Source: an uncultured virus (IMG/VR IMGVR_UViG_3300003364_000021)
Taxonomy: Duplodnaviria; Heunggongvirae; Uroviricota; Caudoviricetes
Virus record (IMG/VR): IMGVR_UViG_3300003364_000021
Coordinates: 1 to 64,000 of that record
Length of the DNA stretch: 64,000 bases
Reading direction: 5' to 3' (one strand)
Within the stretch, counting starts at the first letter, position 1; the number at the start of each line of letters is the position of its first letter. The notes beneath the pieces are model-generated. The model made no database searches, was not told where the DNA came from, and saw nothing but the letters and a program-made list of their open reading frames with translations. Shown here piece by piece: positions 3,859 through 49,061 of the stretch. The translations under genes were made by a program, and so were the position numbers.

Positions 3859-3918
3859 AAAACCCCCGTTGCTGTAAACTAGAGTGTAATTCACTGCAAA
3901 CTTCGCTGTCACGCTACA
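3859..3918 (+). mobile_element. Right end of decayed Mu-like element 0
   Basis: 56/60 identical to 48553-48612; repeated CTGYAAAC-like motifs; ends in CTACA. Confidence 0.85.
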
Positions 3919-3923
3919 ACAGT
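3919..3923. repeat. 5-bp target-site duplication ACAGT (left copy)
   Basis: Lies between ...CA and TG...; identical to 48613-48617. Confidence 0.85.
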
Positions 3924-4330
3924 TGTAGGTTTACACCATTGTTTACAGTGATGCCGGACGACCCGGGACGAGGCTGGAAGAAGGCGGATCACCCAATGAA
4001 ATAAGGGGTTTCGAGCGCCAAGAGGCCCACCGGGACGCGCGAGTGCAAAGTTTGCAGTAAATCGGCAAAACAGCACCAACAGGGCGAAAACGAGCGCGTT
4101 GGTCGGAGCAAGGCCGCGGACGTGGCGAACCCTACCAAACCCCATTAAAACACGGTTTAAGCGCCTCTTGGGTGGGTGCTAAACACACCATTCAAGGGCC
4201 TTTTCCGCATCCGGAACTGGGACCCAAACCGCCCAGTTCTACTTAGCCCTCCCAGATCCCTGCTGCGGCTTTTGAAATCAAAGGCTTGGAGATTCCCGGC
4301 GTAAAGGCGGTAGAAAAAGAAGTGGGACCC
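3924..4330 (+). repeat. Left-end region of prophage 1 with putative transposase-binding repeats
   Basis: GTTTACAC 3929, GTTTACAG 3941, GTTTGCAG 4050; collinear similarity to 48618-49025. Confidence 0.75.
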
Positions 4331-4590
4331 TTTTTGAGATCGAGCCACCGCTGTAGCTGCTGGTGCGAAGCGGGTCCGACCCGCCTTCGAATGACCGGAT
4401 CGAGCCCTTTGTACTGATTGCTGCATCGCGCGCGAATGGCAGCTTTGTGGGGCTTACTTCAACTTTGCCCACAGCCACCGGTTATGATCATCGACAAGCC
4501 AATCCGATGCGTGTTTGATGATGTTCATGCCGTGGGGCTTTGACAACGCGCGCGTTGGCACTGGCCAAGTATTGATAGGGAGGGATTTGA

Positions 4591-5502
4591 GTGATGCGTT
4601 CTTTCTTTGAAAAGCCTGTTGCAGCTTTTTCGCCGAATCCAAGCAATATCAAGCCCCCGACACGTTTCGGCGCAACTATCGGGTTAGTCGTTGTTTTTTG
4701 CGCATTTTTTGTATCAGCTTTCGCTCCAATTCTGGCGCCATTTGAACCAACCCTTAGTGTCGCCACAGCATTTTCACCTGCGGATGAAGAGTTCCTTTTG
4801 GGAACTGATGAACTAGGCCGCGACAGCTTATCAAGATTGATCTATGGCCTCAGAAACCTCGTCTGGGTGGCTTCGGCTACGTCCTTGCTTTCGATCACCA
4901 TTGGTCTTTGCGCGGGCGTCACTGCCATAGTGCTCGGTGGGTGGTTGAACAGAACGATCTTCGTGCTTGCGCACGCGATCTCAACTCTGCCTGCACTGTA
5001 CTGGGGCTTCTTCTTTGGGGCCCTGTTCTACGTCCCTTCAAGCCTAAGCTTGATCATAGCAATTACCATACCGTTTTCGGGACGTGTTTTTCGTTTATGC
5101 AGCAGCGAAACCATGGGAGCGGCGCTCGAAAACGCATATACCGCATCGAAATCAGGTTCAGCGGTTTTGTGGTTTGGCGTTGCGGGGAAATTCGTGCGAC
5201 AGGAAATAGTTTTTCTTGCGGCAATGCTTGGGAATATCTTTAACGCAACGATACTAGTGGTCTTTTCTCTTTCTTTTATAGGTCTGGGGATTCAACCGCC
5301 ACACTCTTCGTTGGGACGGTTTATTGCAGAAAATGCTACTCTCATTTCATTTGGAGACTATACCCCGGCCCTTCCGTTTTTAATCGTGATCCCGTTGGTA
5401 ATGTCGGTCTACATATTGAACGACAATGTCTTGCGCCGTACGGGGCGCAACTTGGTGCCAAGCATCAGAACACATGGTCCAGTCTGGGACCTACAGCGGT
5501 AA
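4591..5502 (+). CDS. Orphan DppC/OppC-like ABC transporter permease
   Basis: APILAPFEP...LLGTDELGRD..SRLIYG and SFIGLGIQPP motifs; multiple TM segments. Confidence 0.75.
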   Translation: MMRSFFEKPVAAFSPNPSNIKPPTRFGATIGLVVVFCAFFVSAFAPILAPFEPTLSVATAFSPADEEFLLGTDELGRDSLSRLIYGLRNLVWVASATSLLSITIGLCAGVTAIVLGGWLNRTIFVLAHAISTLPALYWGFFFGALFYVPSSLSLIIAITIPFSGRVFRLCSSETMGAALENAYTASKSGSAVLWFGVAGKFVRQEIVFLAAMLGNIFNATILVVFSLSFIGLGIQPPHSSLGRFIAENATLISFGDYTPALPFLIVIPLVMSVYILNDNVLRRTGRNLVPSIRTHGPVWDLQR

Positions 5503-5559
5503 CACTTAAAGCGGACTTTCGCGGAGCTTCCGGCGACGGCATCCGCCGGTAGGGCCACC

Positions 5560-5610
5560 TGTTGCAACCAAGTAGAAATGTCAGCCGGTCCGCAAAGTAG
5601 AAATGTCACC
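5560..5610 (+). mobile_element. Possible orphan IS end (ISNCY/IS1202-like)
   Basis: Starts TGTTGC; 14-bp direct repeat AAGTAGAAATGTCA at 5570-5583 and 5595-5608; no transposase follows. Confidence 0.45.
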
Positions 5611-5634
5611 AAGGACGATGACGGGAGCAAAGCT

Positions 5635-6318
5635 TCAGATGCCTAGGTATTTTAGGGCCTTCTTCGCGGTTTTTCTGACCTCAGACTCCGGATGTTCAAC
5701 AAACTCAGAAATCTTATCTGCAGAGGTTTGAGCTTTAAGCTTTCCCAGACATGCAATTGCGCTAACGAGCAAATCGTCATTCTCCAGCAGCCGGATCAGA
5801 TAGGGAATGCTGTCCTCTTTCAGAATTCTCGTCACGCCAAAAGGGAGCTCGGATCTCGAAAACCCGTAACGACGGTCTTCGAGCAAAGAAATAATATCTT
5901 CGACGTCGCCAGCATCGGCAACCACGGACAGAGTATTGCCCATAACCCACCTGAGGTCATCATCACGTTCCGCCCGAAAAAGCCTTATCAACTGGCGGCC
6001 AGCAACACCCCGGGCAAAAGGAGCTGCCAGAGATCTTATGATCCCTTCCTTGTTTTTCTTCACATATGGAAAGTTTAAATGCCTGAGGAGACTTGGGACT
6101 GCCAAAGAATAGTCGGACTCCGAATTGACCAGATCCCAGATCGACGCCACGTGAAGTCCCAGCGCGACCAGATCGGCCACAATGGGCCGTTCATCCTGCG
6201 ACAGCCTGGCCTCCTCCTGTGCTAATCTTTGGTCTTCCTTTTCTATCCTCTCAAGATATTGAGCGTCTCGCGCCAATTCGGTCATAAACGCCTCAGCCGT
6301 CATGGGTTTCCTTGCCAT
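5635..6318 (-). CDS. HEAT-repeat protein
   Basis: Helical repeats ending HPESEVRKTAKKAL; GGAGG RBS before MARKP. Confidence 0.7.
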   Translation of the reverse strand: MARKPMTAEAFMTELARDAQYLERIEKEDQRLAQEEARLSQDERPIVADLVALGLHVASIWDLVNSESDYSLAVPSLLRHLNFPYVKKNKEGIIRSLAAPFARGVAGRQLIRLFRAERDDDLRWVMGNTLSVVADAGDVEDIISLLEDRRYGFSRSELPFGVTRILKEDSIPYLIRLLENDDLLVSAIACLGKLKAQTSADKISEFVEHPESEVRKTAKKALKYLGI

Positions 6319-6740
6319 GATCCCTCCCTTGCAGACCCCTTTACGCTGGACGATACCGCAAGGGACTGGGTTTGCATATGCTCCGTTCCTGACTGGATCG
6401 AGACCGCCTGAGACCGGCCCTCGCCCCCAGCCCTGCGCCCGCCCGCAGCGCCTCCCGGTGCGGCGTCGGGCGGGGCGGGGGCATCTCAATTTTGGGATCG
6501 TCGAATCCGGGCGGTTTTTCGTGTCCGATTGCGGTTGGATTCGGGCCGGTGTCACCTGTCTCGTAAGGGATCATATGTTGTGTAAAATTTGTTTACCTTC
6601 TGGAAACATAAGCCCCATTTGCCGCCTTGTCCGCGCGCGCGCCTAGACGCCCGTTGGCGACTTCCGCAATGGCTGTAGACTCGGATCGCGCGCTCCTTAA
6701 GGGTAAAAATCTATAGATTTAACTCAGAATGGAACGAATT

Positions 6741-6956
6741 ATGCCCGAATATTATGTGAACAAAAATACGCAGATCAACGGCGACAATGAAGTCCACCGG
6801 AGCGATGAGCTGAACTGCCAAAATCCAGCGGCGTACTGGAACAGGGTTGCTTTGGGACTTCACAATGACTGTCATTCGGCAATTAAATCGGCTAAGTCTC
6901 GAGGGTATAACGCAAACGGCTGCTTCTATTGCGCCAACGCGTGTCATACGTCCTAG
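6741..6956 (+). CDS. Small Cys/His-rich hypothetical protein
   Basis: YYVNKN..NGDNEVH...NGCFYCANACHT. Confidence 0.65.
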   Translation: MPEYYVNKNTQINGDNEVHRSDELNCQNPAAYWNRVALGLHNDCHSAIKSAKSRGYNANGCFYCANACHTS

Positions 6957-7050
6957 CAGCGCCTAAATGGCCCGTTACGAGGGCGCACGGCCTCAATGCC
7001 GTGAGCAGTCGGCCGCGGCCCCTCGCCGAGTTTACCTAAGGATCCTGCCC

Positions 7051-7353
7051 ATGACATTGAGGCGCTTGTTCCTAGCCGTCGCGCTGTTCGGAATATCTTC
7101 CACGCTTGGTTTCGCGCAGACGCAATCCACGCCGCATGACGGCTCCTATCAGCTGGCGCAACGCTATGCCTGCGGCCGGACTTGCGGGCAAGTCAGCAGT
7201 TGCCGCGAAGCCGTCTATCAATGGTGCGTTTGTGGCTACAGCCGCGCGGATGGAGATCGTGACGGCGTACCCTGTGAGACAGTCTGCGGCCAAAGCTCCG
7301 CCAGTTCGCTTGCGCGGGTGCGGGGTTTCAAGGACGAGTTCGGGTGTCGCTAG
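7051..7353 (+). CDS. Excalibur calcium-binding domain secreted protein
   Basis: Signal peptide; C...SC.EA...DGDRDGVPCE motif. Confidence 0.8.
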   Translation: MTLRRLFLAVALFGISSTLGFAQTQSTPHDGSYQLAQRYACGRTCGQVSSCREAVYQWCVCGYSRADGDRDGVPCETVCGQSSASSLARVRGFKDEFGCR

Positions 7354-7419
7354 CGGCCCTAAGCTGCCATTGCCCGCTGTTTGAAATGCTAACTGCGGCC
7401 CGTCATTGCGGACTTTCGT
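7354..7419 (+). repeat. Cargo-flanking repeat, type 2
   Basis: Aligns with reverse complement of 48463-48530 (CGGCCC.AAGC..CC.TT...ATGCT...CGTCA...CGGAC.TTCG). Confidence 0.6.
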
Positions 7420-7749
7420 TGCAGCACGAACCCCGAAACACGAAAACAACGTCAAATCAGAAGGTCGAACGACCGCATCAAGCGCCAGTCCCGCGCGAGC
7501 ATCTTAGTCCAAGAGCGCATGATTAAAAAATTCAGGTTCAAACATGAATGTAGGGTTGAAAGTTATAGAGGACGTTCAAGTTGCACGAAGTACTTTTTTC
7601 CCTGTTCGGATTTCTTGCAGGAGCGGTGTATACAACCCCGCAGCATACCCATTTCCAGCAGGTTAAAAGGCAGCTATATTGGCGCTACGCGCCAATACGA
7701 TGTAGTAAATTTTCGTCATTTTCCCTTTCTTAAGCGAGCCTCGGAATAC

Positions 7750-10701: not shown

Positions 10702-10745
10702 GTTTAACCCTTTACTTTGGGTCATTGTAGCCGTCGGTGGAATAT

Positions 10746-10818
10746 CGGCAAGGTCCGGTTTCCGCCCCGGGTGCTGTCGAGGTCCCGGGCGCAGCGAAAG
10801 TCGGCTTTCCCGCCCCTG
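10746..10818 (-). repeat. Cargo-flanking repeat, type 1 (two tandem copies)
   Basis: GGGCGGGAAAGCCGACTTTCGC and GGGCGGAAACCGGACCTTGC, similar to 3010-3034 and 45290-45314. Confidence 0.6.
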
Positions 10819-10856
10819 TTGTCGAAGCATCGGTAATATTCATCTTAACGAAGCCC

Positions 10857-11516
10857 TCACCACGCATGCGCTGACCACACGATCTCGCCCAGGACGCGCA
10901 TGCGGTTCATGTCGGGGCCACGGCGGGTTTCGGTCGGGTGGATCGGGTTGTCGGAGGTCAGCACCATCATCTCGTTGTCGACCAGGTCGAGGCGCTTGAC
11001 GCGGGCGCTGCCATCGGTGTCGACGAAGGCGTAGACGTGGCGGTTGCGGATCGTGGTGCGGCGCTCGTCGATCATGACAAGGTCGCCGTCGTTCAGGGTC
11101 GGGGCCATGCTGTCACCCGCAACGGTGAGCAGACACGCCTGCGCAGGTGAAATACCCCGCTCGCGCAACCAGTTCTGGCGAAAGGCCAGTGCGCCTTGCA
11201 GGCTGACATCGCCGTTCAAGGCCCCTGCCCCCGCCGCCAGCCGCGCGTCAACGCGCGGGATTGCGGCGAAATCTTCGTGGTCGATCTGGGTAGTGTATAC
11301 AGCCCCCACTTCGCGCGGCGGACCAAAATATAGCTCTAGATCAAGTACTTCGGCTAGCCGCTCCAGTGAAGCCCAATTGTATCGTTTGTCGCCGTCGCGC
11401 TTCATTCGAAAGTTCTTAATCAAAGACGGATGACCGACCGCGAGCCGCGAGGCTTTCGCGTCTGAATAGCCCTTCTTTTTCAGGGCCTCATCGATCTGGT
11501 TAAGAATCACATCCAT
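10857..11516 (-). CDS. CI-like repressor with S24 peptidase domain
   Basis: N-terminal HTH-like region, AG cleavage motif (LAAGAG), GDSM and VKRL catalytic motifs; divergent from early operon. Confidence 0.9.
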   Translation of the reverse strand: MDVILNQIDEALKKKGYSDAKASRLAVGHPSLIKNFRMKRDGDKRYNWASLERLAEVLDLELYFGPPREVGAVYTTQIDHEDFAAIPRVDARLAAGAGALNGDVSLQGALAFRQNWLRERGISPAQACLLTVAGDSMAPTLNDGDLVMIDERRTTIRNRHVYAFVDTDGSARVKRLDLVDNEMMVLTSDNPIHPTETRRGPDMNRMRVLGEIVWSAHAW

Positions 11517-11527
11517 CTGGTCACGAT

Positions 11528-11594
11528 AGCCAGTAATGGCCAATTCGTAAACATAAAGCTACTACAGGCTTGTATTGCCGGGCTAGTAGTGGCT
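11528..11594. promoter_or_regulatory. Prophage 1 switch region with three putative operators
   Basis: AGCCAGTAATGGCC 11528, AGCTACTACAGGCT 11557, GGCTAGTAGTGGCT 11581. Confidence 0.55.
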
Positions 11595-12421: not shown

Positions 12422-12426
12422 GCGGG

Positions 12427-12687
12427 ATGAGCCTGCATGTGCAAAGATGGGGCCATGGATACGCCGTTTTCGACGGTAAGGAGCGCTTATCTGGCGCGTT
12501 CAGCAACCGCGATATCGCCCTGCGCGCCCAAGACCGGATGGAGAACGAGACAGCCAAATCCAAGCACGCCCGTAACCGCCCCTGCCTGACTTGCGGCACC
12601 GAGTTCTGGTCAACGGGATTGGGACACCGCATGTGCGGCAACTGCCGCACCAATTGCGCCGGGCTCGACGCCCAGATGGTGGGCTAA
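12427..12687 (+). CDS. Zn-finger hypothetical protein
   Basis: CLTC...CGNC; homolog at 50961. Confidence 0.7.
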   Translation: MSLHVQRWGHGYAVFDGKERLSGAFSNRDIALRAQDRMENETAKSKHARNRPCLTCGTEFWSTGLGHRMCGNCRTNCAGLDAQMVG

Positions 12688-13523
12688 TGATTGAACACCT
12701 GTCCACAATCACCGAATTGCCGATAGACGCGATCAAGGTCGAGGATCGGTTACGTGACACATCTCCAGACGGCATTGCCAATCTCGTTGAAGCTATAAGG
12801 GAAACCGGGTTCAGCGGCAGCATCCGGGTTCGCCGCAAGAAAGATGGAGATTATCTCATAGACGGCGCCCACAGGCTTGCCGCGATGAGGGAGCTGGGCA
12901 AGACTTCAATTCCTGTCGATTTGGTTCGCTGTAACGACGCAGAAGCGCGACTTATGGAGATCGACGGCAACCTCATGGGTCAACCCATGACCGTCCTTGA
13001 TGACGCCTACTTTTTGGCCACGCGCCGGGAGATGATCCAGAAAATCCATCCCGAAATGCGGCAAGGATCAGCTGGGGCTGCAGGACGTTGGATGCAACTG
13101 CATTTCAGTGCACTTGCACAAACCATCGCCACAGCTCGGGGCATCAAAACCCGCCAAGTCTATAATATAATGGCAGCCGGAGCGTCTCTTTCACGCGAAG
13201 AATACGAAGCCCTTAAACACTCGCCGGCCCTCCGTCTGAATGACTTGCTGGCGCTCAGAAAGATCGTCGGCACAGAGGAGCGCAACTATGTTGTGGAAGC
13301 GCTCTCTGAGGGGCTGGTCAAGAATGCGGGGGCAGCACGAAAGGCTTACCTTGCAGCACGCGGCGAGGCTCCAGCCCCGGCGAGCGATAAAGACCAGAAG
13401 CTGTCGCGCCTACTCGACGCTTGGGACCGCGCGGGCAAGCGCGAGCGCCGGGCATTCCTCGAGGAACGCGGCGCAGAGGTTGCGGCGTTGTTCGGCGAGC
13501 TTGACCAAGGGGATGCGGCATGA
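12687..13523 (+). CDS. ParB/Srx N-terminal domain protein
   Basis: LIDGAHRL motif. Confidence 0.85.
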   Translation: MIEHLSTITELPIDAIKVEDRLRDTSPDGIANLVEAIRETGFSGSIRVRRKKDGDYLIDGAHRLAAMRELGKTSIPVDLVRCNDAEARLMEIDGNLMGQPMTVLDDAYFLATRREMIQKIHPEMRQGSAGAAGRWMQLHFSALAQTIATARGIKTRQVYNIMAAGASLSREEYEALKHSPALRLNDLLALRKIVGTEERNYVVEALSEGLVKNAGAARKAYLAARGEAPAPASDKDQKLSRLLDAWDRAGKRERRAFLEERGAEVAALFGELDQGDAA

Positions 13524-15643
13524 CTGGCCCGGCCCCTGCGCAGGAGTGGTGGAGTGCGGCTGAGCTGGCCGAGGCTGGGTTGCCCGACCTGCCCGGCACC
13601 AAGCGCAAGGTCAATCTGTTGGCGCAACGCGAGGGCTGGGCGCGGCACGCGGGTAAGGTCCGGCGGCGCAAGGGGGCCGGTGGCGGCGTTGAATATCACT
13701 GGAGCGTGCTGCCGTTGCGCGCCCGCATGCGACTTAGCGCCGATCTGGTCAAAGCCCCGGAGGAGAAATCCGGCAAAGACGAGGCGTGGGAACGCTATGC
13801 AGCGGCGGGCGACAAGGCCCGCACTGAGGCCGAGGCGCGGCTAGAGGCCGTTGCCGAGGTCGAATTGTTGGAAGGGGCCGGGTTGACCCGCTCCGCGGCC
13901 GTGCGCGAGGTCGCGCACAAGCTGGGACGGTCCGAGAAATCTCTCTGGAATTACCTCGGGCAGGTCGAGGGAGCGGCCCCCGCCGACCGGCTGGCTTACC
14001 TGATCGACGGGCGCGCAGTGCGGCGTGCTCCCGCCCAACGGGGCGATATCGACCCGGCCTTTCTGGCGCTGGTGCGCAGCGATTGGCTGCGCCTGTCGCA
14101 ACCCTCGCTCACCAGTTGCTATGACCGCGCCGTGCGCGTCTGGACCTCCGAGCGGCGCAACAGCACCGTGCCTCCCCTTCACCAGGTGCGGCGCTGGATC
14201 AAGGCCAACGTCTCGGCACCGACAGAAACCTACCTGCGCAAGGGCGAGGAGGCACTCCGCCGCCTCTATCCCGCGCAGGTGCGCAGCAAGGCCTTCATGG
14301 TCCCGCTCGAATGCGTGCAGGGCGATTACCACAAGTTCGACGTGTTCGTGCGCTGGCCCGGCATCGACACGCCTGTGCGGCCGCAGATGATGGTCTGGTC
14401 GGACGTCTATTCCGGCAAGCTCTTGGCATGGCGTCTGTCGGACACGGCCAACAGCCACACCGTGCAGCTTGTGACCGGTGACCTGATCCGGACCTATGGC
14501 ATCCCGCAATCAGTTCTGATCGACAATGGCCGGGAATTTGCCGCCAAGGCGATGACGGGCGGCACGCCAACCCGGTTTCGGTTCAAGGTCACGGACGAGG
14601 ATATTCCCGGGCTGCTCCCGCTCTTGGGCGTGCATGTCCACTGGGCCACGCCCTATTCCGGGCAATCCAAACCTATCGAGCGCGCCTTTCGCGACCTCTG
14701 CGACCGGGTGGCCAAACACCCCGCCTTTGACGGGGCCTATACGGGCAACAAGCCAACGGCAAAGCCTGAAGATTACGGCTCCCGCGCCATCCCGCTCGAC
14801 GAGTTCCGCCTCGTGTTGGAGGAAGAGCTTGCGCATCACAACGCCCGCCCCGGGCGGCGCAGTGAAGTTGCCATGGGACGGTCGTTCAATGAGGTCTTCA
14901 ACGAGGGCTATGCGCGCGCCACGATCAAGCGCGCGACCGACGAGCAGCTGCGCCTCTGGCTCCTGCGGGCCGAGGGAGTGCGGGCCAAGACCAGCAACGG
15001 CGCGCTGAAACTCTACGACACGGAATACTGGTCCGAGTGGATGTACCGGATCGCAGGGGAAAAGGTGGTAGCGCGGTTCGACGCGGATGATTTGACAGCC
15101 GGGCTCGAGGTTTATGATCTGGCGGGCCGGTACCTCGGCCATGCCAAGTGTCTCAAGGACGCCAAGTTCCGCGACGTTGGGGCCGCACGCGATCACAACC
15201 GAAAGCGCAAGACGTGGATGCGTGCGCAGCGCGACGAGGCCAAGGCCGCGCGCGAGTTGACGGCGGCAGAGGTGGCCGCACGTGTGCGCGCAGCCTCGGG
15301 GCTGGCGGCAGACGAACCCCTGCCCGAGGCGCAGGTGCATCAGCTGGTGACACCGCATAAGGCCGCCCCAAAACGGCGGCGCGCGCAGAGCGTCGAGGAG
15401 ATAGAGCGCGAAGCAGCGCTTGAGGCCCGCGTGACGCGCCTAGCTGAGCATCGCGCACGCCCCGTTGAGGTCGATGAAGACGATCCCAAGGCCCTGTTTC
15501 TGCGTGCCCGCGCTCTTGAGAGCGCGCAGGCGGAAGGCGAGACACTCACGCAGGCACAGGCCGATTGGCTGGCCGACTACCAACAGAGTTCCGACTACCG
15601 CGCCCAGCTGCGCATGGAGCGCCGCTTCGGTGCCCAAGAGTAA
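13520..15643 (+). CDS. Mu-like DDE transposase (MuA)
   Basis: N-terminal Mu DNA-binding WWSAAELA..GLPDLP; GDYH, IDNG, SKPIERAF. Confidence 0.95.
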   Translation: MTGPAPAQEWWSAAELAEAGLPDLPGTKRKVNLLAQREGWARHAGKVRRRKGAGGGVEYHWSVLPLRARMRLSADLVKAPEEKSGKDEAWERYAAAGDKARTEAEARLEAVAEVELLEGAGLTRSAAVREVAHKLGRSEKSLWNYLGQVEGAAPADRLAYLIDGRAVRRAPAQRGDIDPAFLALVRSDWLRLSQPSLTSCYDRAVRVWTSERRNSTVPPLHQVRRWIKANVSAPTETYLRKGEEALRRLYPAQVRSKAFMVPLECVQGDYHKFDVFVRWPGIDTPVRPQMMVWSDVYSGKLLAWRLSDTANSHTVQLVTGDLIRTYGIPQSVLIDNGREFAAKAMTGGTPTRFRFKVTDEDIPGLLPLLGVHVHWATPYSGQSKPIERAFRDLCDRVAKHPAFDGAYTGNKPTAKPEDYGSRAIPLDEFRLVLEEELAHHNARPGRRSEVAMGRSFNEVFNEGYARATIKRATDEQLRLWLLRAEGVRAKTSNGALKLYDTEYWSEWMYRIAGEKVVARFDADDLTAGLEVYDLAGRYLGHAKCLKDAKFRDVGAARDHNRKRKTWMRAQRDEAKAARELTAAEVAARVRAASGLAADEPLPEAQVHQLVTPHKAAPKRRRAQSVEEIEREAALEARVTRLAEHRARPVEVDEDDPKALFLRARALESAQAEGETLTQAQADWLADYQQSSDYRAQLRMERRFGAQE

Positions 15644-15661: not shown

Positions 15662-16459
15662 ATGACCCCTTCCATTGCGCCCCTGCGAAACGTCGCAGCG
15701 CTGATCGGCCTCGTTGAGCGCGTCCAGTCCCGCGCCTTTGGCCTGCCCGGCATGGCCACGTTCTATGGCCCATCCGGCTGGGGCAAGACGACCGCCGTGA
15801 CAGTCGCGGCCAATGAATATCAGGCCCATGTTGTCCAGGTCAAAGACTGCTGGACACCAACCTATCTGGCGCAAGCGATCCTGCGCGAGATCGGCCTGCC
15901 ATCGCAACGCGGCGTGGCCGCCATGGTCGATGCAATCGGCGCACAGCTTGCACGCAATGACCGCCCGCTCATCATCGACGACGCGCAATATCTCCTGCGC
16001 AAGCGGATGATCGAGCTGGCCCGCGACATTTACGAGAGCTGTCAGGCCCCGGTCATTCTGGTCGGCGAAGAAAAGCTGCCGCAGGATCTGACCCGCTGGG
16101 AGAACATCCACAACCGCCAACTCGCATGGGAACCCGCCCTCGCCTGCAACCTGCCGGACGCAGAAAAGCTCGCGCCAATCTACGCGGCTGGTATCGACGT
16201 CGGCGCTGACCTGCTCGGAGCCATCGTCGACGCCTCGGGCGGCTCGATCCGCCGGGTGGCGATCAATCTGGCACGTGCCAAGGAACTGGCCATGGGCCGG
16301 GGGCGGCGTCTGGCCGACCTCGAGCTTTGGGGCAACCGGGCCTTCGAGACCGGGCAACCTCCTGCGGTGCGCCGTGTCGATGATTTCCGCCTCGCCGCCC
16401 CACTCGCCCCCGAAAAGATCGTGCCGCTCGCGGCTGAGAAGAAGGCGGGCCGGGCATGA
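15662..16459 (+). CDS. MuB-like AAA+ transposition ATPase
   Basis: GPSGWGKT, LIIDDAQ; directly downstream of MuA. Confidence 0.9.
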   Translation: MTPSIAPLRNVAALIGLVERVQSRAFGLPGMATFYGPSGWGKTTAVTVAANEYQAHVVQVKDCWTPTYLAQAILREIGLPSQRGVAAMVDAIGAQLARNDRPLIIDDAQYLLRKRMIELARDIYESCQAPVILVGEEKLPQDLTRWENIHNRQLAWEPALACNLPDAEKLAPIYAAGIDVGADLLGAIVDASGGSIRRVAINLARAKELAMGRGRRLADLELWGNRAFETGQPPAVRRVDDFRLAAPLAPEKIVPLAAEKKAGRA

Positions 16460-41527: not shown

Positions 41528-41745
41528 TGAACCGCGTCGCCTATGAGAGCAACGGCGGCCCGGTGGTGGATGGCGTTCGCGCCATCCACGCCTGGAACGC
41601 GGCTCTCATGGCGGCAATCGACCTGCTCGAAAAATACGAGCGCCCGAATGTGAGCCTCAAGACCTTAAGTTCGGACACGTTCGACGCGGGGCGGATGGAT
41701 CTCGCGGCCTCACTCAAGCGGGATCTCCGCGCTCTCAAGCTGTGA
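41527..41745 (+). CDS. Hypothetical protein
   Basis: Coupled ORF. Confidence 0.5.
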   Translation: MNRVAYESNGGPVVDGVRAIHAWNAALMAAIDLLEKYERPNVSLKTLSSDTFDAGRMDLAASLKRDLRALKL

Positions 41746-41767
41746 CATCACGTAAGGAAGCCCAAAG

Positions 41768-43237: not shown

Positions 43238-43530
43238 TGGACGAGATGAAGACCTTCGAGAAAAACACCTATTCCGCCGTCATCACCTTTCTCAGGAAGG
43301 ACAGCACCGCGCCCGATCTCAGCGGGGCCGCTGTAGAGGCATGGGCGCTCGGCGCTGGCCCCACCATCCCCTTGGGGGTGAGTGTCCTGGACGGCATGGC
43401 CGGCGTGGTGCGCGTGTTCTGGCCTGCGGAGACATTTGCGGCGGGGCTCTACGAGGTCCAGCTGCGCGCCTCGAAAGGCGGCAAGACGGAAACCTATGCG
43501 GCGCGCCTGACAGTCGCCCGGTCGATCTGA
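43237..43530 (+). CDS. Hypothetical protein (BppU-N-like)
   Basis: DLSGA.V...G.V...G.YEVQL pattern. Confidence 0.5.
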   Translation: MDEMKTFEKNTYSAVITFLRKDSTAPDLSGAAVEAWALGAGPTIPLGVSVLDGMAGVVRVFWPAETFAAGLYEVQLRASKGGKTETYAARLTVARSI

Positions 43531-43701
43531 AGACATCCCCCAATGTGTGGGGATTACCCGGTGGCCGTGAGCGGCCGCCCTACAGGAGGCCCCGAGCGTG
43601 CTGGAGGGCACGCCCGGGCACGCGGGGCCAGTCACCAAACATACCCCCGCCGACCAGAAACACCTCATGGCCGCTCCCTGCCCCAAGGGGGCGGCGGGAC
43701 T

Positions 43702-43920
43702 ATGAGGCGATTCGATTTGGAAGGTCTAGAACTGCGTTGCTGCGCATGCAGCCGTTTGCTATTTAAATATCAGAGAGGGGCGCAAATATCCGGCGTCTCG
43801 ATCAAATGCCCGCGCTGCCGGGCGATGAATATCCTGAGGCCAAGAGCCCTTCCCCAAACGCGCGATGCGCAGAGAGAAGGAGCCAAACTTGACCAGATCG
43901 ACCACACTCCCGAAACCTGA
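43702..43920 (+). CDS. com: Com-family Zn-finger translational regulator
   Basis: RCCACSRLL...IKCPRC..N.LRP; Mu com position. Confidence 0.8.
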   Translation: MRRFDLEGLELRCCACSRLLFKYQRGAQISGVSIKCPRCRAMNILRPRALPQTRDAQREGAKLDQIDHTPET

Positions 43921-44071
43921 GCTGCCGCCCGGTGCGCCGGGCCTGCCCAAAGGCGTCCGCTACCGGCGGCAATATGGCGTCATCGTCCTCCTCGAGGACG
44001 AGGTGGCTCAAATCAACGCCTTCGGCCGGTTGCGCCGCCAAGGCTTCAAATGCCGCGTGGTGGTCACATGA
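43889..44071 (+). CDS. Small hypothetical protein coupled to ATPase-GNAT
   Basis: GAAGGAG RBS plus TTG start; QYGVIV..EDE..Q...F..L...G.KCRVV. Confidence 0.6.
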   Translation: MTRSTTLPKPELPPGAPGLPKGVRYRRQYGVIVLLEDEVAQINAFGRLRRQGFKCRVVVT

Positions 44072-45177
44072 AGCTCGCCATCCACCACGCCAGCCCCATC
44101 CCGGATACCTACCGCGCCGCCCGGGTCTCCAGCCTCTTCAACGTCGAGGGCGACGCGGATTTCCGCATCGAGGTCGAGGCCGATCTGGCAGCACAGCCCT
44201 GGCAGATAGGCCTCATCGTCGGCCCCTCTGGCAGCGGGAAATCCTCGCTCGCCCGCGAAGCCTTCGGAGCGGAGCTTGACCCGCGCCCGTGGCCCGAGGG
44301 CGCGCTGATCGACGCGATTGACCCCGAGGGCGAATTCGACGCCGTCGCGGCCGCCCTCTCCGCCGTGGGCCTCGGCACGGTGCCCAGCTGGCTGCGCCCC
44401 TATCCCCACCTCTCCACCGGCGAGCAGTTCCGGGCCGAGCTCGCGCGCATTCTGGCCGAGCGGCCGAGCTTTGCCATTCTCGACGAGTTCACCTCGACCA
44501 TTGACCGGCGCGTGGCCCAGATCGGGGCGGCAGCCTTTGCCAAGGCATGGCGGCGGGGCTCTGGCCAGTTCGTCGCCGTCACCTGTCACGAGGACGTCGT
44601 GTCCTGGTTGCAGCCCGATTGGGTGATCGACACCCGCCGGGCCGAGTTTCGCTGGAGGCGTCTTCGACGGGCACCCCGCATTGCCATGGACATTCACCAG
44701 ACAGACGGCTCCTTCTGGCCCGCCTTTGAGCCGCATCACTACCTGAAGCTGCCCCGCATGATCGCGGCCAATTACTACGTGGGCTTCGTCGACGGCGCAC
44801 CGGTGGCGCATCTGGCCGTCTCGACCCGGCCGGGGCTGGTCGAAGGCCGCGCCTGCCGCCTTGTCGTCATGCCTGAGTGGCAGGGCGCGGGGCTGGGGCT
44901 GCGCTTTCTCAACGAGGTTTGCGCGCTCTGGCGGCGCGGCGTGAACCGCTACGACAAACCGATGCCGATGCTGTTTCACACCTCGCATCCCGGCCTCGCC
45001 GCCGCCCTGCGCCGCGATCCCCTCTGGGCACAGGTTTCGGCCATCCTCTATGCCGAGGCCAAGGAACGCAGCATGAAGACCCTCGCCGCCGCCCGGGCAC
45101 GCAAAGGCCTCAAACCCGCCGGGAGCGGCTACGGCGGGCATTTCCGCGCGGTGCAGGGCTTTCGGTATGTCGAGTGA
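44068..45177 (+). CDS. ABC-type ATPase fused to GNAT acetyltransferase (mom position; putative DNA modification)
   Basis: GPSGSGKS, LSTGE, ILDEF; HHYL; RLVVMPEWQGAGLG acetyl-CoA motif. Confidence 0.8.
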   Translation: MKLAIHHASPIPDTYRAARVSSLFNVEGDADFRIEVEADLAAQPWQIGLIVGPSGSGKSSLAREAFGAELDPRPWPEGALIDAIDPEGEFDAVAAALSAVGLGTVPSWLRPYPHLSTGEQFRAELARILAERPSFAILDEFTSTIDRRVAQIGAAAFAKAWRRGSGQFVAVTCHEDVVSWLQPDWVIDTRRAEFRWRRLRRAPRIAMDIHQTDGSFWPAFEPHHYLKLPRMIAANYYVGFVDGAPVAHLAVSTRPGLVEGRACRLVVMPEWQGAGLGLRFLNEVCALWRRGVNRYDKPMPMLFHTSHPGLAAALRRDPLWAQVSAILYAEAKERSMKTLAAARARKGLKPAGSGYGGHFRAVQGFRYVE

Positions 45178-45289
45178 GGGGGGTGTTAAAGGGGCGTTGA
45201 AACAGCCCCTCATGTTCCTTCCCAATGATCGGTGTCAGGCGGTAGCCGATCGAGATCAAACTCCCAGCTAGCCGACGCAGCACGAGCAG

Positions 45290-45314
45290 GAAGGGCGGAA
45301 AGCGGAAGTTCGCT
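45290..45314 (+). repeat. Cargo-flanking repeat, type 1
   Basis: 21/25 identical to 3010-3034. Confidence 0.6.
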
Positions 45315-45504
45315 ATGGGTGCGAGGCCTGAAAACCATAGTTTCTAGGCGGATATTCATTTGGCCAATCTCTTATGCCTTCGTGTTGGGCCAGCGATTGG
45401 CCCTCGACTTGGACTTGATGAGCAATCAGTCGCGACGTTTTTCTGATGTGCAACGGTCAAATTTGGTTTAGGGTCCCCCGAAAAGGCAGCGGCGAATTCG
45501 ACCA

Positions 45505-46401
45505 ATGTACACAGATAGAACTCGCGACCACCACAAGGATGCGGCGATTGCTCGCCTTTTTTCGGCCGGCGTTGTTAGAGAACTTGCTGAAAAAGGCAGC
45601 TCTGCCAAGTTTAGCTCGTTGGTAAATCAAGCTGAACTATTCGAACTTCAAGAAGTTCGCACCGTCGGTGACGCGTTTGACTTTGGCTTCGCTCAATTAC
45701 GCCGAAGTGGCCTCCGAAATGAATACATTTATCAGTCGGCTATAGTTCAAAACGTGCTCTTAGGTAAACATTCCCTGAAAACAGCCAGTATGGTGAGAGA
45801 GTTTCGAACTGGAGCTAGCAGAGCGGATGTTGTCATATTGAACGGCACATCTACAGTCTATGAGGTTAAATCCGAACGTGACAGTCTCCAGAGACTTGAG
45901 AAACAACTAGAAGACTACGCCGATATATTTGCTCGTACGTATGTAATTGCTTCAGAACGTCACATCAACGCGATAAAAGAGCTCGCGCCGCTTCACGTAG
46001 GCGTTATGTATCTGAAAAGATGGAATAGCATAAGCACAGTTAGAGAAGCCGTCGATCGGCCAGACGAAGTTAAACCACTCAGCATTCTGGGGGCTCTTCG
46101 AAGAACTGAGGCAATTCGTATTCTCAAACACATAGGCAAGCCTGTACCTTCCGTGCCAAACACTCAGATGTTTAGCGCGCTTTCAGAACTCTACGAACGC
46201 CTTGATCCAAGAGAAGTCCATGACGCAATGGTTCAGGTGCTCAGGCAGAGCCGAACACAACATTCTTTCCAGAGACTCGTCGAAGATCTACCTTTATCGT
46301 TGCATGCCGCCGCATTGATGTACAACTTAAGGCTAAGTGACGGGGCAAAACTGGTGCAAGCCATTAAAACTCCAATCGAACAATCAATATTTTGGAGTTA
46401 G
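45505..46401 (+). CDS. sce7726-family protein (PD-(D/E)xK-like)
   Basis: RNEYIY, EF....RAD.V.LNG....YEVKSERD.L.RL..Q. Confidence 0.8.
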   Translation: MYTDRTRDHHKDAAIARLFSAGVVRELAEKGSSAKFSSLVNQAELFELQEVRTVGDAFDFGFAQLRRSGLRNEYIYQSAIVQNVLLGKHSLKTASMVREFRTGASRADVVILNGTSTVYEVKSERDSLQRLEKQLEDYADIFARTYVIASERHINAIKELAPLHVGVMYLKRWNSISTVREAVDRPDEVKPLSILGALRRTEAIRILKHIGKPVPSVPNTQMFSALSELYERLDPREVHDAMVQVLRQSRTQHSFQRLVEDLPLSLHAAALMYNLRLSDGAKLVQAIKTPIEQSIFWS

Positions 46402-46409
46402 GATGTTAA

Positions 46410-47357
46410 ATGTACTTTCCATACTTTCGCGGTAAGCAATTTGAGCTCATCACTATTCGAGATACCGCAGAATTGCTGGCGAAGGCTGGTTTCATACCCA
46501 TAATTGAACCCGTAAAAGAAGCACTGAAGGGGTTGACCCGTGCGCTTGACGCGGTTTGTGAAAGCGGTGGGCATGCGATCGTAATAGTGAATCCTCAACA
46601 TGGAAGCTTAGCTGGAAATGGAGCCGCAATATCGACTTTTCTCAAGGAAGGCTATCTTGAGACCGACAACGTAAGCGCTGGCATCTTATTGACGGATACG
46701 ATGACGGTAATAGATGCCATGACGCTTTTTGAAGCTCATACAAATCATAGGCCGTATTTTATTCACTCGGGCTTTCTGCAGGAAAACGGCCTCGCAGAAA
46801 AACTTGGGGACGAGCTCAGTCATACACGACATGTCTTCATCGAACAGGCTAGCCCTGTATTATACCGAAAGAAGTTCAGCAGTGCTTCTCGAGTGCTGCT
46901 TCGGGATGGATTCAACAAACAGCGGAATGCTAGTTATCCTGCTGTTGAGCTTTTTTCAGATTTGCATGTAACATTTAATTCCGAGTTGGGTTTGAATGGT
47001 TTTGGAGACTTCCTAACTGTCGGGGATGACTATAGTGAGACAGGTGGACCTGCTTATGCCGTCGCCATTCACATGACGTTCATTGATCCAGACAAAGACG
47101 ATCAGATGTACGTGCGCCATTTTGTGTCAGATTCAAATAGCACTCCAACGGATCCTGCTGGAAAGTTCGCAGAAGCGCTCTCTAAGCTGGTCACGAAGTT
47201 CAATCACGGAACATCAAACCTGTTTCATGGTAAGGCTTTATCTGAGTTCCTAGAGTTGCATGCAAAACAACACTTTCCAGGGCTGGGTCAGGTTAAAAAA
47301 CTTTCGATGATCCATCACATTGAGACACTGGCAGACTATTTTTCTGAGGCGAATTGA
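46410..47357 (+). CDS. sce7725-family (beta-protein-like) protein
   Basis: MYFPYFRGKQFEL, PIIEPV, GFGDF...GGPAYAVAIH, FPGLG..KKLS..HH. Confidence 0.85.
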   Translation: MYFPYFRGKQFELITIRDTAELLAKAGFIPIIEPVKEALKGLTRALDAVCESGGHAIVIVNPQHGSLAGNGAAISTFLKEGYLETDNVSAGILLTDTMTVIDAMTLFEAHTNHRPYFIHSGFLQENGLAEKLGDELSHTRHVFIEQASPVLYRKKFSSASRVLLRDGFNKQRNASYPAVELFSDLHVTFNSELGLNGFGDFLTVGDDYSETGGPAYAVAIHMTFIDPDKDDQMYVRHFVSDSNSTPTDPAGKFAEALSKLVTKFNHGTSNLFHGKALSEFLELHAKQHFPGLGQVKKLSMIHHIETLADYFSEAN

Positions 47358-48421
47358 TGCCAAATAAATGCTGCCCAAACTGTTTTGGGGACCGTGGACT
47401 CGAAAAACACCTGTTTCAATTTCTGGCTACAGAATTGGCGAAAGGGGATTGTAATTATTGCGGAGACCCTTCGGACAAACTTGTTGAACCGTCGGAGCTT
47501 TCTGATGTTTTTGAGCTGCTAGTCGAATCTTATGAAGAAGCTGAAGGCGGTGTAAGTCTTGTGGCAAACTTCAAAAAGGACTGGGGGCTTTTCTCTCATG
47601 CCAAAATGGACGAAGCACACGCCAAAGAACTACTTTCCGATATTTTAGATGATGGAGAGATCGTTCGAAAGTCGTTTAGACCCTTGACCGCGCCGGATGA
47701 CTCTAAGGTCGGTGATTGGCTTGAACTTCGTCAAGAACTTCGCTTCAAGAATAGGTATTTTCTAGACGAAAAAATTAAGGAAGAACGGTTGAAGCTTTTG
47801 CTCGAGTTCTTGCTTTCAGCACCGCTAGAAAAGATCTGGTTTCGAGCCAGGATCTCGCCTGATAATCAGCCTTTCGATGCCCAATCGATGGGAGCGCCAC
47901 CAAAAGGTTCCGCTTCCCACGGAAGAGCCAACCCCGCAGGCATTCCGTATCTCTATCTTGCATCTGATGAGAACACAGCGATTTCGGAAATACGCCCTCA
48001 TACGGGTGAATTCGCGACCGTTGCAGAATTTGAGCTGCGTGAAGGACTTACAATCGTCGATTTACGATCACCTAAGACACTCGTCTCTCCTTTTATCTGT
48101 GGATCTTCCGATGAGATTGTTCAGCTTAGGGCAGACTTGCCGTTCCTAGAAAGTCTGGGCCACGAACTCACTCGTCCGGTGCTGCCCCGCAGCGCCGCAA
48201 CTGACTACGTTCCAAGTCAATATCTCTGCGAGTTTATAAAGAAAAAAGGATTTGACGGTGTACTTTATACGAGTTCTGTGGGGACGGGAAAGAACTTGGC
48301 CCTCTTCGATACCGAAGCGGCAAATTGCATACGAGTATCCGTTTTTAGTGTCGCTAGCGTTGCAGTCACCGCTCATGAGTTTCGCACACAGGTTCGCCCG
48401 TTGGAGCGCGTTGAAAATTAG
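47357..48421 (+). CDS. RES-domain protein with Cys-rich N-terminal domain
   Basis: CCPNC..CNYC; FRAR, GRAN...YLYL, EIRP, Y.PSQ, DGVLYTSS. Confidence 0.88.
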   Translation: MPNKCCPNCFGDRGLEKHLFQFLATELAKGDCNYCGDPSDKLVEPSELSDVFELLVESYEEAEGGVSLVANFKKDWGLFSHAKMDEAHAKELLSDILDDGEIVRKSFRPLTAPDDSKVGDWLELRQELRFKNRYFLDEKIKEERLKLLLEFLLSAPLEKIWFRARISPDNQPFDAQSMGAPPKGSASHGRANPAGIPYLYLASDENTAISEIRPHTGEFATVAEFELREGLTIVDLRSPKTLVSPFICGSSDEIVQLRADLPFLESLGHELTRPVLPRSAATDYVPSQYLCEFIKKKGFDGVLYTSSVGTGKNLALFDTEAANCIRVSVFSVASVAVTAHEFRTQVRPLERVEN

Positions 48422-48462
48422 AAATAGATCTGGGGCGCGATAGGCTCGGTTTTACACTCTCG

Positions 48463-48530
48463 GCGAATGTCCGGTGTGACGTTCCGGGTCGCAGCATCTG
48501 GGTTGATCGACGAACGGTCGCTTTGGGCCG
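48463..48530 (-). repeat. Cargo-flanking repeat, type 2
   Basis: Reverse complement aligns with 7354-7419. Confidence 0.6.
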
Positions 48531-48552
48531 GACGTCACAGTCACCAATTTCT

Positions 48553-48612
48553 AAAAACCCCGTTGCTGTAAACTTCACTGTAATTCACTGCAAACTTCGC
48601 TGTCACGCTACA
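48553..48612 (+). repeat. Right end of prophage 1
   Basis: CTGTAAACTTCA-CTGTAATTCA-CTGCAAACTTCG-CTGTCACGCTACA. Confidence 0.85.
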
Positions 48613-48617
48613 ACAGT
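48613..48617. repeat. 5-bp target-site duplication ACAGT (right copy)
   Basis: Identical to 3919-3923. Confidence 0.85.
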
Positions 48618-49061
48618 TGTAGGGTTACACTCTAGTTTACAGTCATGCCGGAAGACCCAGAATGAGGCGGGATGAAGCCGGATAGGTCAATGAAATAAGG
48701 CATATTTCTGCGCGGACGCGGGGCTGCGGTTGGCATGGGTGAAGTTTGCAGTAAAGTGCGAGAAGCGGGCGAAAACGGCGATGTTGGCGTTTTCGGGGCC
48801 ACTGCGAACTGCGAAGCGCAAAATGTGCGAAACCCTATTGAAATATGGTTCAAACGGCTCTGAGAGGGGTGTTTAAGGGGGCATTTAACGGCCCCCGGCA
48901 CGTCCGGAACTGGGACCAAGTCCGCCCAGTTCTAATTTGCCGTCCCACTTCCATGTTTCCGCTAATGAAATCAAATACATAGAGATTTCTGAAGTAGGAT
49001 AAACGGAGAATAGAAGTGGGACGGTTTTTCTAGGCCTAAGGAACGCTAAAAGGTAGGTTCT

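Follow-up and report, generated by a model that had tools for sequence, protein, structure and literature searches.

Head-to-tail stacks of Mu-type prophages at a Roseovarius locus and their relatives: evidence for site- and orientation-selective insertion by a transposable phage lineage

Phage Mu is the textbook case of near-random transposition guarded by target immunity: it shows little specificity in its choice of targets and spares DNA close to its own ends. The transposon Tn7, at its site attTn7, forms arrays of copies in the same orientation, with the same 5-bp duplication at every junction, and a host landmark sets the insertion distance. In such an array, the member farthest from the landmark is the oldest and the most decayed. 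The DNA described here is a stretch of 64,000 nucleotides (nt) from an uncultured member of the Caudoviricetes (positions 1 to 64,000 of IMG/VR record IMGVR_UViG_3300003364_000021; hereafter the window, meaning the whole of this stretch), in which Mu-like prophages are stacked head to tail between the host ykuD gene and an acyl-CoA dehydrogenase (ACAD) gene of a Roseovarius chromosome. The stack is real. What appears to be new, in a reading that is largely right, is a Mu-type phage lineage with site- and orientation-selective insertion, head-to-tail stacks and a readable trail of scars.

Target preference among Mu-like phages has been described for Pseudomonas phages of the D3112 group, which have strong replicative hot spots 55-61 bp from palindromes of bacterial interspersed mosaic elements/repetitive extragenic palindromes (BIME/REP), with no orientation bias; for phage Ab30, 0.4% of events fell in phage DNA (PMC5977238, as far as the available part of that study goes). 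The closest isolated relative of the elements described here is Thiobacimonas phage vB_ThpS-P1 (KT381864.1), a roseobacter phage that has been induced and sequenced. The available part of its description mentions neither stacks nor ends nor target sites and reports, on a thin basis, that the virions carry no random host DNA longer than 1 kb at their termini (PMC5488378). More generally, no stacked, end-abutted Mu-like prophages and no scars of right-end tips are described in the accessible portions of the literature consulted, one relevant survey of transposable phages being outside that scope.

Both junctions in the window read ...GCTGTCACGCTACA, then ACAGT, then TGTAGG..., at positions 3905-3929 (J1) and 48599-48623 (J2). 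At each, the right (R) end of one element is joined through ACAGT to the left (L) end of the next, with boundaries at 3918/3924 and 48612/48618, exactly as an earlier, sequence-only reading of this DNA had proposed. A single degenerate pattern covering L- and R-type ends, TGTAGNNTNACANNNNNGTTTNCAGT, matches the window four times, precisely at the ends termed R0, L1, R1 and L2, and gives 0 matches over 100 shuffles. R0 and R1 have 56/60 bases in common and L1 and L2 49/60, the first mismatch between the L ends falling at base 7, and in this the same reading was also accurate. J1 and J2 share an identical stretch of 45 nt. The L and R ends are imperfect inverted repeats of each other (23-24/50) with 5' TG and 3' CA, and the termini TGTAG...CTACA have the 5'-TG...CA-3' form of Mu-like transposable phages.

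The internal layout of the ends is also Mu-like. R0, the 60-nt right end of the leftmost element (element 0), occupies 3859..3918 on the + strand and has cores CTGTAAAC at 3872 and CTGCAAAC at 3894; its likeness to the right end of prophage 1 breaks off at 3859. R1, the right end of prophage 1, lies at 48553..48612 (+) with cores at 48566 and 48588, and the two copies of the target pentamer ACAGT lie at 3919..3923 and 48613..48617. Cores of the same form, GTTT[AG]CAG, occur at 3941 and 4050 in L1 and at 48635 and 48744 in L2, so that an L end has one core near its tip and one about 110 nt inward and an R end has two that are close-set. The ends of Mu have a layout that recalls these arrangements, and the cores resemble transposase sites and are candidate repeated subterminal sites.

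The window holds the whole of prophage 1 (P1; 3924..48612, + strand, 44,689 bp), delimited by the end pattern and typed by Pfam and PHROGs, and the left 15.4 kb of prophage 2 (P2; 48618..64000, +). The record's contig is 80,838 b long, stops inside P2 and is non-circular, the last 20-50 nt being unique to its end. J1 and J2 recur at the identical spacing of 44,694 nt in metagenome contigs of 878 kb and 1.34 Mb, both of which also include R2, where P2 ends on the right; from the positions of L139, L151 and L146 on the 878-kb contig, P2 has a full length of 41,736 bp. A further sister contig, G003, carries P2 to 185 nt short of R2. To the right of P2, the sequence reads R2, ACAGT, CACGCTACA CCCCTTTTCCCCATCCCCCC TTTGCAATAGTT..., with the start of the ACAD gene 67 nt later. 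The earlier reading had predicted CTACA followed by ACAGT beyond P2, and this third ACAGT is indeed present, followed by a 9-nt copy of the R tip (a scar, as argued below) and then by host DNA of the ACAD promoter region. Three copies of ACAGT are what 5-bp duplication would be expected to leave after two insertions into one target. Breaks recur at one place in the P2 tail genes (80838, where the contig of the window's record ends) in several independent sister contigs, and about 8.4 kb into P1 in two others; they suggest repeats or strain variation at those places.

An artefact of assembly, in which a short-read assembler crossed between phages via the shared 45 nt, is scarcely credible. The identity of those 45 nt at J1 and J2, the fragmentation of the region into short shared pieces in Logan contigs (k=31) and the origin of the window in a metagenome-derived virus record all speak for it. 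However, 45 nt is shorter than usual read lengths, and the same order and spacing are found in 13 viral-contig loci and in the 0.88- and 1.34-Mb metagenome contigs with host DNA on both sides, though samples and assembler were possibly shared. Moreover, equivalent junctions occur in isolates, both in Roseovarius sp. 217 (L071) and in the isolate-derived virus records G001, G002, L199, L200 and L201. Stacked transposable prophages, and 80-kb "proviruses", can be genuine and not assembly errors.

A near-identical strain has the same locus with different content. Positions 1-3858 of the window are 98% identical to Roseovarius sp. 217, which has the same R0, followed by CACGC and a single 41.6-kb phage with other end variants; on the right of that phage, the sequence reads CACGC TACA ACAAACCCCC... 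and then enters the ACAD gene. Because the two strains share the stump and the site while differing in phage and pentamer, a single inherited duplication is excluded. Target duplications of 5 bp also flank single relatives elsewhere: CCCCG in R. mucosus (39.1 kb), ACCTC in one metagenome contig (38.9 kb) and CACGC in Roseovarius sp. 217. Together with the threefold ACAGT of the stack, these are the 5-bp duplications typical of Mu-type insertion.

By gene content and divergence, P1 and P2 are different phages. Pfam was run on 84 open reading frames (ORFs) from P1, early P2 and the flank, and PHROGs on 31 proteins. In both prophages the early genes encode, besides a divergent repressor and a ParB-like protein, a transposase of the MuA type, complete with the domains that bind Mu ends, and an AAA+ protein of the MuB type. 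The P1 transposase gene (13520..15643, +) matches Pfam DDE_2 (2e-46), HTH_Tnp_Mu_2, Mu-transpos_C and HTH_Tnp_Mu_1, and its product is 62% identical to the vB_ThpS-P1 transposase and 33% to that of Mu. Its P2 counterpart (52519..54645, +; DDE_2 9e-45) is 85% identical to it, and all four domains exceed the Pfam cut-offs in both prophages; the PHROG match of this transposase type is phrog_310 (1.5e-161). As in Mu-like phages, the gene for the AAA+ partner adjoins the transposase gene, at 15662..16459 (+) in P1 (AAA_22 6e-15; phrog_296 'DNA transposition protein' 4e-56) and at 54664..55461 (+) in P2 (AAA_22; 88% identity to the P1 protein). The repressors differ, as the earlier reading had noted: that of P1 is a CI-like S24 peptidase (10857..11543, -; Peptidase_S24 3.6e-18, phrog_4 3e-29), that of P2 an HTH_3 protein (49513..50004, -; HTH_3 8.5e-10), and BLASTP finds no similarity between the two. 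The ParB-like proteins are 46% identical. Over the 32,221 nt of P2 that were compared, 64.5% aligns to P1 at a mean identity of 83.6%; the other 35% is without a counterpart in P1, and the two prophages carry different cargo on the left and on the right.

These differences bear on a single tandem duplication, or a Campbell-type recombination of a circular or concatemeric R-ACAGT-L form into a resident copy, that later became mosaic. The identity of P1 and P2 by segment, which ranges from 71% to 92%, does look mosaic, and the report of virions without random host DNA longer than 1 kb at their termini, from the available part of the vB_ThpS-P1 paper (PMC5488378), leaves room for phage-phage junctions. 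Nevertheless, such an origin is very improbable, since the repressors are unrelated, the cargo and a third of the compared P2 sequence are unmatched, and P1 and P2 are too different for a recent duplication. R0, R1 and R2 each differ from one another; Roseovarius sp. 217, nearly identical as a strain, combines the same R0 with a third, different phage and a different pentamer; and other genomes join unlike phages, as where vB_ThpS-P1 lies beside a different element in G002. Tandem lysogeny of the integrase type likewise finds no footing: no integrase or recombinase family occurs among the Pfam matches of the 84 ORFs, and the similarity to the left of J1 amounts to the 60-nt phage R end only. 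Site targeting, with one pentamer hit independently at least twice in the same orientation, was first proposed from the window and fits all of these findings.

No selector stands out. No TniQ/TnsD, TnsA, TnsC or CRISPR effector appears among the Pfam matches of the 84 ORFs or the PHROG matches of the 31 proteins, in keeping with the earlier reading. That reading had named the ParB-like gene and two ORFs after MuB as candidate selectors, and these fared less well, being members of the ordinary phage families phrog_3264, phrog_2030 and phrog_2119 with nothing that singles them out. The P1 ParB-like gene (12591..13523, +) matches phrog_3264 at 5e-49 and Pfam ParB_N at 1e-4, below the cut-off, and the same ParB-like-A-B order is annotated in vB_ThpS-P1.

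Relatives of the stack show how general the pattern is. The end pattern was scanned in viral, genome and metagenome collections, giving 28, 38 and 74 loci, respectively. These reduce to 20 distinct L-end contexts (18 by script, with L153 and L202 added by hand), of which 13 abut an R end, all 13 of them head to tail in the R-to-L sense, and 7 are flanked by host DNA. The spacers between abutting R and L ends are ACAGT (twice), CACGC, AACGC, ACAAC, CACAC, TACAA, CAC, none, ACAGTCAC and ACAATCCT; in two abutments, the R tip is cut short and the L end begins 4 or 8 nt within it. Arrays in the same orientation occur in the window, in Roseovarius sp. 217 and in the genome G008. Relatives scattered over random loci without stacks, the outcome that would have spoken against targeting, are thus not what is seen; loci recur, and so do stacks. 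In a sample of 401 family genomes that includes few Roseovarius and is therefore uninformative, the L-end pattern with 3 mismatches was found only in G007 (1/401).

R ends fall into 37 distinct contexts: 8 abut an L end, 16 lie upstream of an ACAD gene and 13 are elsewhere. In 15/16 of those upstream of ACAD, fragments of the R tip stand between the tip and the host. An exact suffix of the R tip at least 6 nt long occurs within 60 nt outside the tip in 19/29 distinct non-abutted R ends, compared with 25/2000 random 60-mers from the loci analysed. The unit lengths are 11 nt (13 times), 9 (4 times), 8 (4 times), 6 (3 times), 13 (once) and 17 (twice). No L-tip fragments were seen ahead of the 7 host-flanked L ends, judged by eye and not by script. 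The R-tip fragments are read here as scars of earlier insertions, because a 5-bp-duplicating insertion inside a resident R tip leaves behind the target pentamer plus the rest of the tip. Roseovarius sp. 217 preserves both sides of an insertion of this kind. In one metagenome project, ...CTTCG CTGTC followed by an L end (L192) and an R end followed by CTGTC ACGCTACA (L177) lie on two contigs and are probably the two sides of one such event. Where one prophage is accompanied by several scars, a subsequent collapse of tandem copies is implied.

Several variations on this pattern were also observed. Upstream of ACAD in L102 (G044), the scars include an inverted L-tip fragment, AAGTTTGTAAACCTACA, the sole sign of an insertion in the opposite orientation. 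On one 247-kb metagenome contig (L129 and L138), a 44-kb prophage is bordered at either end by ACAGTCAC, which looks like a duplication of 8 nt instead of 5 and can be explained by two successive events and a collapse. Miniature derivatives exist at the ACAD hot spot as well: a metagenome-assembled genome has an element of about 310 nt made up of an L end and an R end (L096/L078), and in G008 (C1 399003-401261), a 2.26-kb two-ended element lies between ykuD and a full 44.5-kb phage, which it abuts with no spacer.

Abutments and scars alike raise the possibility that the tip of the resident R end is itself the target. The transpososome would be drawn there, for example by transposase-distorted DNA, and would insert at about -17 to +8 nt relative to the tip, L end first; the repeated use of chromosomal loci would then reflect nothing more than the survival of an old R end that serves as a landing pad. 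In favor of such targeting, the abutments are R-to-L in 13/13 cases, and the inferred targets cluster around the tip, at +1..+5 for J1, J2, L071, L189 and L028, -5..-1 for L059, -9..-5 for L021, -13..-9 for L192 and +4..+8 for L129 and L153. The 11-nt unit is the commonest among scar units of at least 6 nt (13/27), the GTTTGCAGT core never occurs in scars whereas the 60-nt R0 retains two, and scars are also present at the non-ACAD loci L132, L047, L076 and L049. There is a precedent in IS30, whose dual specificity for hot-spot sequences or its own ends yields exclusively junctions of the left and right inverted repeats (IRL-IRR), according to the portion of the source at hand (PMC9333248). Attraction to the R tip does not explain, however, scar-free independent insertions at the same host position (CCCCG and ACCTC, 1 nt apart; L074 at lexA) or the distances from tip to motif described below, which hold steady at 34-39, 50 and 54-57 nt regardless of the filling. 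It also conflicts with Mu target immunity near Mu ends, as covered in the accessible part of PMC5977238, although that rule was set for Mu and this is another family. Overall, the R tip as the target is the main rival reading, though an unlikely one.

The host loci themselves recur. A probe for the 5' region of the ACAD gene was matched in 110 of 121 genus genomes, and the best 30 of these 110 loci were inspected: 12 have an R end or a decayed remnant upstream, 4 are empty ykuD-ACAD sites and 14 have another neighbor without a phage. The R ends and remnants meet the host at several different points, so several independent entries took place, and in every occupied ykuD-ACAD site, the R end faces the ACAD gene. 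A second locus, upstream of lexA, is occupied in a Rhodobacterales metagenome-assembled genome and in Pseudooceanicola pacificus. A third, a conserved non-coding locus with TGGGAA boxes, is used in R. mucosus, R. lutimaris and three metagenome contigs and is the locus of vB_ThpS-P1. Clean insertions found here in two different hosts are separated by 1 nt and have the duplications CCCCG and ACCTC, so they must be independent events and not one inherited insertion. R ends also lie upstream of an ivd-like ACAD gene (L047) and of a SUF gene (L072).

At each of the three recurrent loci, the R tip keeps a nearly fixed distance from a host landmark. At the ACAD site, it is 34-39 nt from TTGCAAYAGTT in 13/16 distinct contexts, while the filling varies by lineage, a host-derived base of 7, 14, 21 or 25 nt being extended by one, two or three scar units. 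In 2/2 genomes with an R end at lexA, the distance is exactly 50 nt, measured from TTGACA(C); one of the two has an 11-nt scar and the other is scar-free. The corresponding figures at the TGGGAA-box locus, counted from the first such box, are 54, 55, 56 and 57 nt in 4/5 contexts. The fixed distance and orientation that define Tn7-like targeting are thus found at all three loci, in lineages that are not independent of one another. Distances that jump by about 11 nt (25 to 36 to 47; 39 to 50) suggest a preference for one helical face. The landmarks resemble -35 elements at ACAD (TTGCAA-N16/17), the ivd-like gene (TTGACG-N18-TATAAA) and lexA (TTGACA-N17-TAGAAC). A simple -35/-10 score gave good candidates at these three and revealed nothing convincing at L077, L132, L053, L155 and L072, and because the promoter idea fails beyond ACAD, the ivd-like gene and lexA, it is a lead only.

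Some sites have other features that may be of interest. By eye and without a control, scar-free insertions lie at or just before the 5' edge of inverted repeats in L074, L077/L182 and L080, the edges reading CATTT/CATGAATTCATGAAATG, CCCCG/CC-CAAGT-GGCGGGG and AGGGT/GTTGC-GCCTT-GCAAC, and the left boundary in G008 is inside the ykuD terminator hairpin, also by eye. The flanks to the right of the R ends L077, L182, L132, L049 and L188 are one homologous non-coding region of about 400 nt that is relatively AT-rich and contains repeated TGGGAA/TGGGAC boxes. The string TTATCCACA in the L049 flank resembles a DnaA box, and the region may be origin-like or a heavily bound regulatory region.

The constancy of distance at ACAD shifted the weight from the R tip, which was the first reading of these data, to a host anchor. 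The account that is on balance probable is repeated Mu-type transposition into one target that is re-created by the 5-bp duplication and positioned mainly from the host side. At least two separate transposition events of the Mu type (DDE chemistry with a 5-bp staggered cut) would have used the pentamer ACAGT at a chromosomal hot spot between ykuD and the ACAD promoter, one that this phage family occupies in many Roseovarius genomes. The duplication would restore the target directly to the right of the new R end, so that the site stays open and the next phage can enter on the host side of the resident R end, head to tail with the resident and at the same pentamer. The cut would be set mainly from the host side, at a near-fixed distance from the host landmark. 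With a resident tip at the preferred position, the next cut would fall at +1..+5 and leave no scar. With a tip nearer the landmark, the cut would fall a few bases inside it, leaving the new phage followed by the target and the remainder of the old tip, and the new tip would be pushed outward. Loss of one phage-length by homologous recombination between tandem copies, which is assumed, would then yield a single prophage with a scar. The selector might be a protein of the phage, a nucleoprotein complex of the host or a structure in the DNA. A ruler on the host side would account for the constant distance, for clean hits that arose independently, for there being one orientation at each locus and for the identity of the three pentamers.

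Several observations weigh against a host anchor or limit it. The remaining ACAD contexts lie at 13, 47 and 49 nt from TTGCAAYAGTT, the fifth TGGGAA-box context is at 35 nt, and a search by eye found no motif common to the three landmarks. The R ends L053, L072 and L155 are at loci seen once each, so targeting is not absolute. All of the evidence consists of end states, from which insertion is deduced; the constancy of distance comes from non-independent lineages; a resident R tip acting as the target would account for every scar and abutment just as well; and collapse by homologous recombination is an assumption. Because the lineages are not independent, confidence in the host anchor stays modest and the R tip is kept as the main, though less likely, rival. 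The earlier reading had offered a chromosomal site or a resident phage end; of the two, the landmark distances better support the chromosomal site, and the resident end is the less likely of the two.

A hint in favor of the account given above comes from variation within the population. Logan contigs (k=31) from runs containing the stretch were compared with J2, with depths taken from contigs and not from reads. In X1 and X5, a 43-nt contig links an R0/R1-type tip via ACAGT to the scar flank CACGCTACACCCC; in the assembled array, this flank follows R2, whose subterminal bases differ from those of R0/R1. Word depths in X1, X5 and X9 are 14.6, 129.8 and 46.2 at the P2 left end, 37.6, 262.3 and 103.1 on the host-left contig and 52.9, 228.6 and 111.4 at the P1 right end. 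The P2 left end is thus at 0.39-0.50 of the depth of the host-left contig, which hints that P2, the host-proximal element, is missing from part of the population. Because depth is contig-based here and the window may itself derive from these runs, the polymorphism amounts to no more than a hint. None of the Logan pieces spans the full 2-kb stretch at J2, X12 reaching just 47972-48538 at low depth.

The left flank of the stack was taken by the earlier reading for a decayed prophage 0, and most of it proves to be host. Window positions 1 to about 2800 are, judging from their genes, host DNA and not decayed phage. The 3' end of a methylmalonate-semialdehyde dehydrogenase-like aldehyde dehydrogenase gene (1..333, +; Pfam Aldedh 3.7e-19; NCBIfam MMSDH 5e-37, a fragment below the cut-off) is 79-98% conserved across Roseovarius genomes. 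The gene for a YkuD L,D-transpeptidase (1498..2064, +; Pfam YkuD 2.8e-17) is the last conserved host gene to the left of the hot spot, and at the empty sites L100, L101, L104 and L105, its stop codon is about 110 nt upstream of the ACAD promoter region. In the gap between ykuD and the remnant lies a gene for a PACE-family efflux transporter (2393..2830, +; Pfam BTP 1e-42; NCBIfam PACE_transport above the cut-off), which occurs at this place only in the window and Roseovarius sp. 217; positions 2102-2800 have no match at the ykuD-ACAD locus of G005, G006 and G008. A tRNA scan of the window found none. Six single N bases, at 1824, 1896, 2674, 2701, 2713 and 3674, are all to the left of J1, with none in the phages, and may be ambiguous calls of a mixed population.

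Element 0 is small because the left part of the window is host. It is best described as a remnant of about 1.1 kb with an ATPase fragment, a fasciclin-domain gene and the 60-nt R0. The phage ATPase gene fragment at its left edge (2796..3001, +, 206 nt) is 84-89% identical to P1 44880-45073 and to the matching P2 gene on a sister contig. The fasciclin-domain gene (3170..3787, +; Pfam Fasciclin 4e-29), which is either cargo or a captured host gene, has homologues of 73-77% identity on other contigs of related genomes.

Beyond the transposition genes, P1 has the content of a Mu-like phage. After MuB come DUF3164, GemA, a weak Mor-like match below the cut-off, lysis genes, Mu gp27 and terminase-sized ORFs, and the late genes comprise Mu portal, Mu F, gp36, capsid and tail genes, a tape measure and a Com-like zinc ribbon (43543-43920). 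This zinc ribbon was all that was recovered in support of the right end as a mom end, as the earlier reading had called it, since no Mom family was matched by the window's proteins. Accessory genes lie at both ends of P1, at 4157-10830 and 44050-48421. The left cargo at 7750-10830 (-) encodes a protein of 1026 aa with pentapeptide repeats and weak NACHT-like and AAA matches below the cut-off. The right cargo includes an ATPase (44050-45177; phrog_11143 and a weak mads_3 match), a PADLOC 'cll' candidate (45505-46401) and, after a phrog_34524 gene, a RES-domain protein (47354-48421). For 12 cargo proteins, PADLOC gave two weak matches (mads_3-like and 'cll') that have no bearing on targeting. 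The end cargo of P1 looks like defence or toxin-antitoxin genes.

A broader claim can be made only tentatively, as something short of probable: that a Rhodobacterales Mu-type lineage has become site-selective without TniQ/TnsD, with MuA/MuB or an unrecognised factor of phage or host reading a few chromosomal landmarks, for example regions upstream of promoters or origin-like nucleoprotein regions, and inserting at a fixed distance and orientation, so that phages pile up head to tail at a site kept open by the duplication and R-tip scars to the right of the array form an ordered record of insertion. A bolder extension, much less likely, is that the same reaction makes phage-to-phage arrays in lytic growth, which could explain the virions of vB_ThpS-P1 reported to lack random host DNA. 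If the broader claim is true, it would reveal a route by which a promiscuous DDE transposase gains site choice without TniQ or CRISPR guidance, which is the very question asked in guided-transposon research. Additionally, scars of end fragments can be read as a chronicle of how phages have come and gone at a locus. Among the systems available in culture are vB_ThpS-P1 with its host, R. mucosus DSM 17069 and Roseovarius sp. 217.

The closest isolated phage, vB_ThpS-P1, shares its R tip and its annotated order of early genes with the elements described here, and its L end (TGTTGGGTGACAC...) is related to theirs; it differs in belonging to another host genus and in using the TGGGAA-box locus rather than ACAD. 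Its sequence KT381864.1 ends exactly at the L end and starts 61 nt outside the R end, and these 61 nt include the scar AACGCTACA. The virus record G002, of which 30,638 b are 100% identical to vB_ThpS-P1, has its L end abutting a different element through R-ACAAC-L, and three further isolate-derived virus records have the same kind of junction. Positions 1-61 of KT381864.1 read R/AACGCTACA/ACGG..., and the metagenome contig L132 at the same locus reads R/ACAACGCTACA/ACGG..., a 2-nt difference; only the L132 version fits the ACAAC spacer at the left junction of vB_ThpS-P1 in G002.

With Mu and the Mu-like phages (saltoviruses and the D3112/B3 group), the elements share a MuA-type DDE transposase, a MuB-type AAA+ protein, TG...CA ends with subterminal repeats, 5-bp duplications and Mu-like head, portal, F, GemA and Mor-like genes. 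Unlike in Mu, lysogenic insertions recur at few loci and in one orientation, and 13/20 L ends abut an R end. Every structural hallmark of a Mu-like phage thus appears to be present, whereas low target specificity and end immunity are not reflected in the genomic end states.

IS30, in its targeting of inverted repeats, and IS911, in its 'targeted' transposition, resemble the present case in their hot-spot or own-end targets, strict orientation and abutted IRL-IRR, as given in the available part of the source (PMC9333248). IS30 differs in having another transposase family, a copy-out-paste-in circle or dimer intermediate, a 2-bp spacer and a junction that acts as a reactive donor. Oriented insertion beside a resident end of the same family is a pattern present here too, and targeting anchored in the host explains it equally well. 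Tn7 has in common with these phages the logic of its arrays. The phages differ from it in having no match to TniQ/TnsD, TnsA or TnsC (84 ORFs), in using at least three unrelated landmarks and in a position that jitters by a few nt, sometimes by about 11 nt. Moreover, the mobile unit in this case is a 40-kb phage with a MuA/MuB pair.

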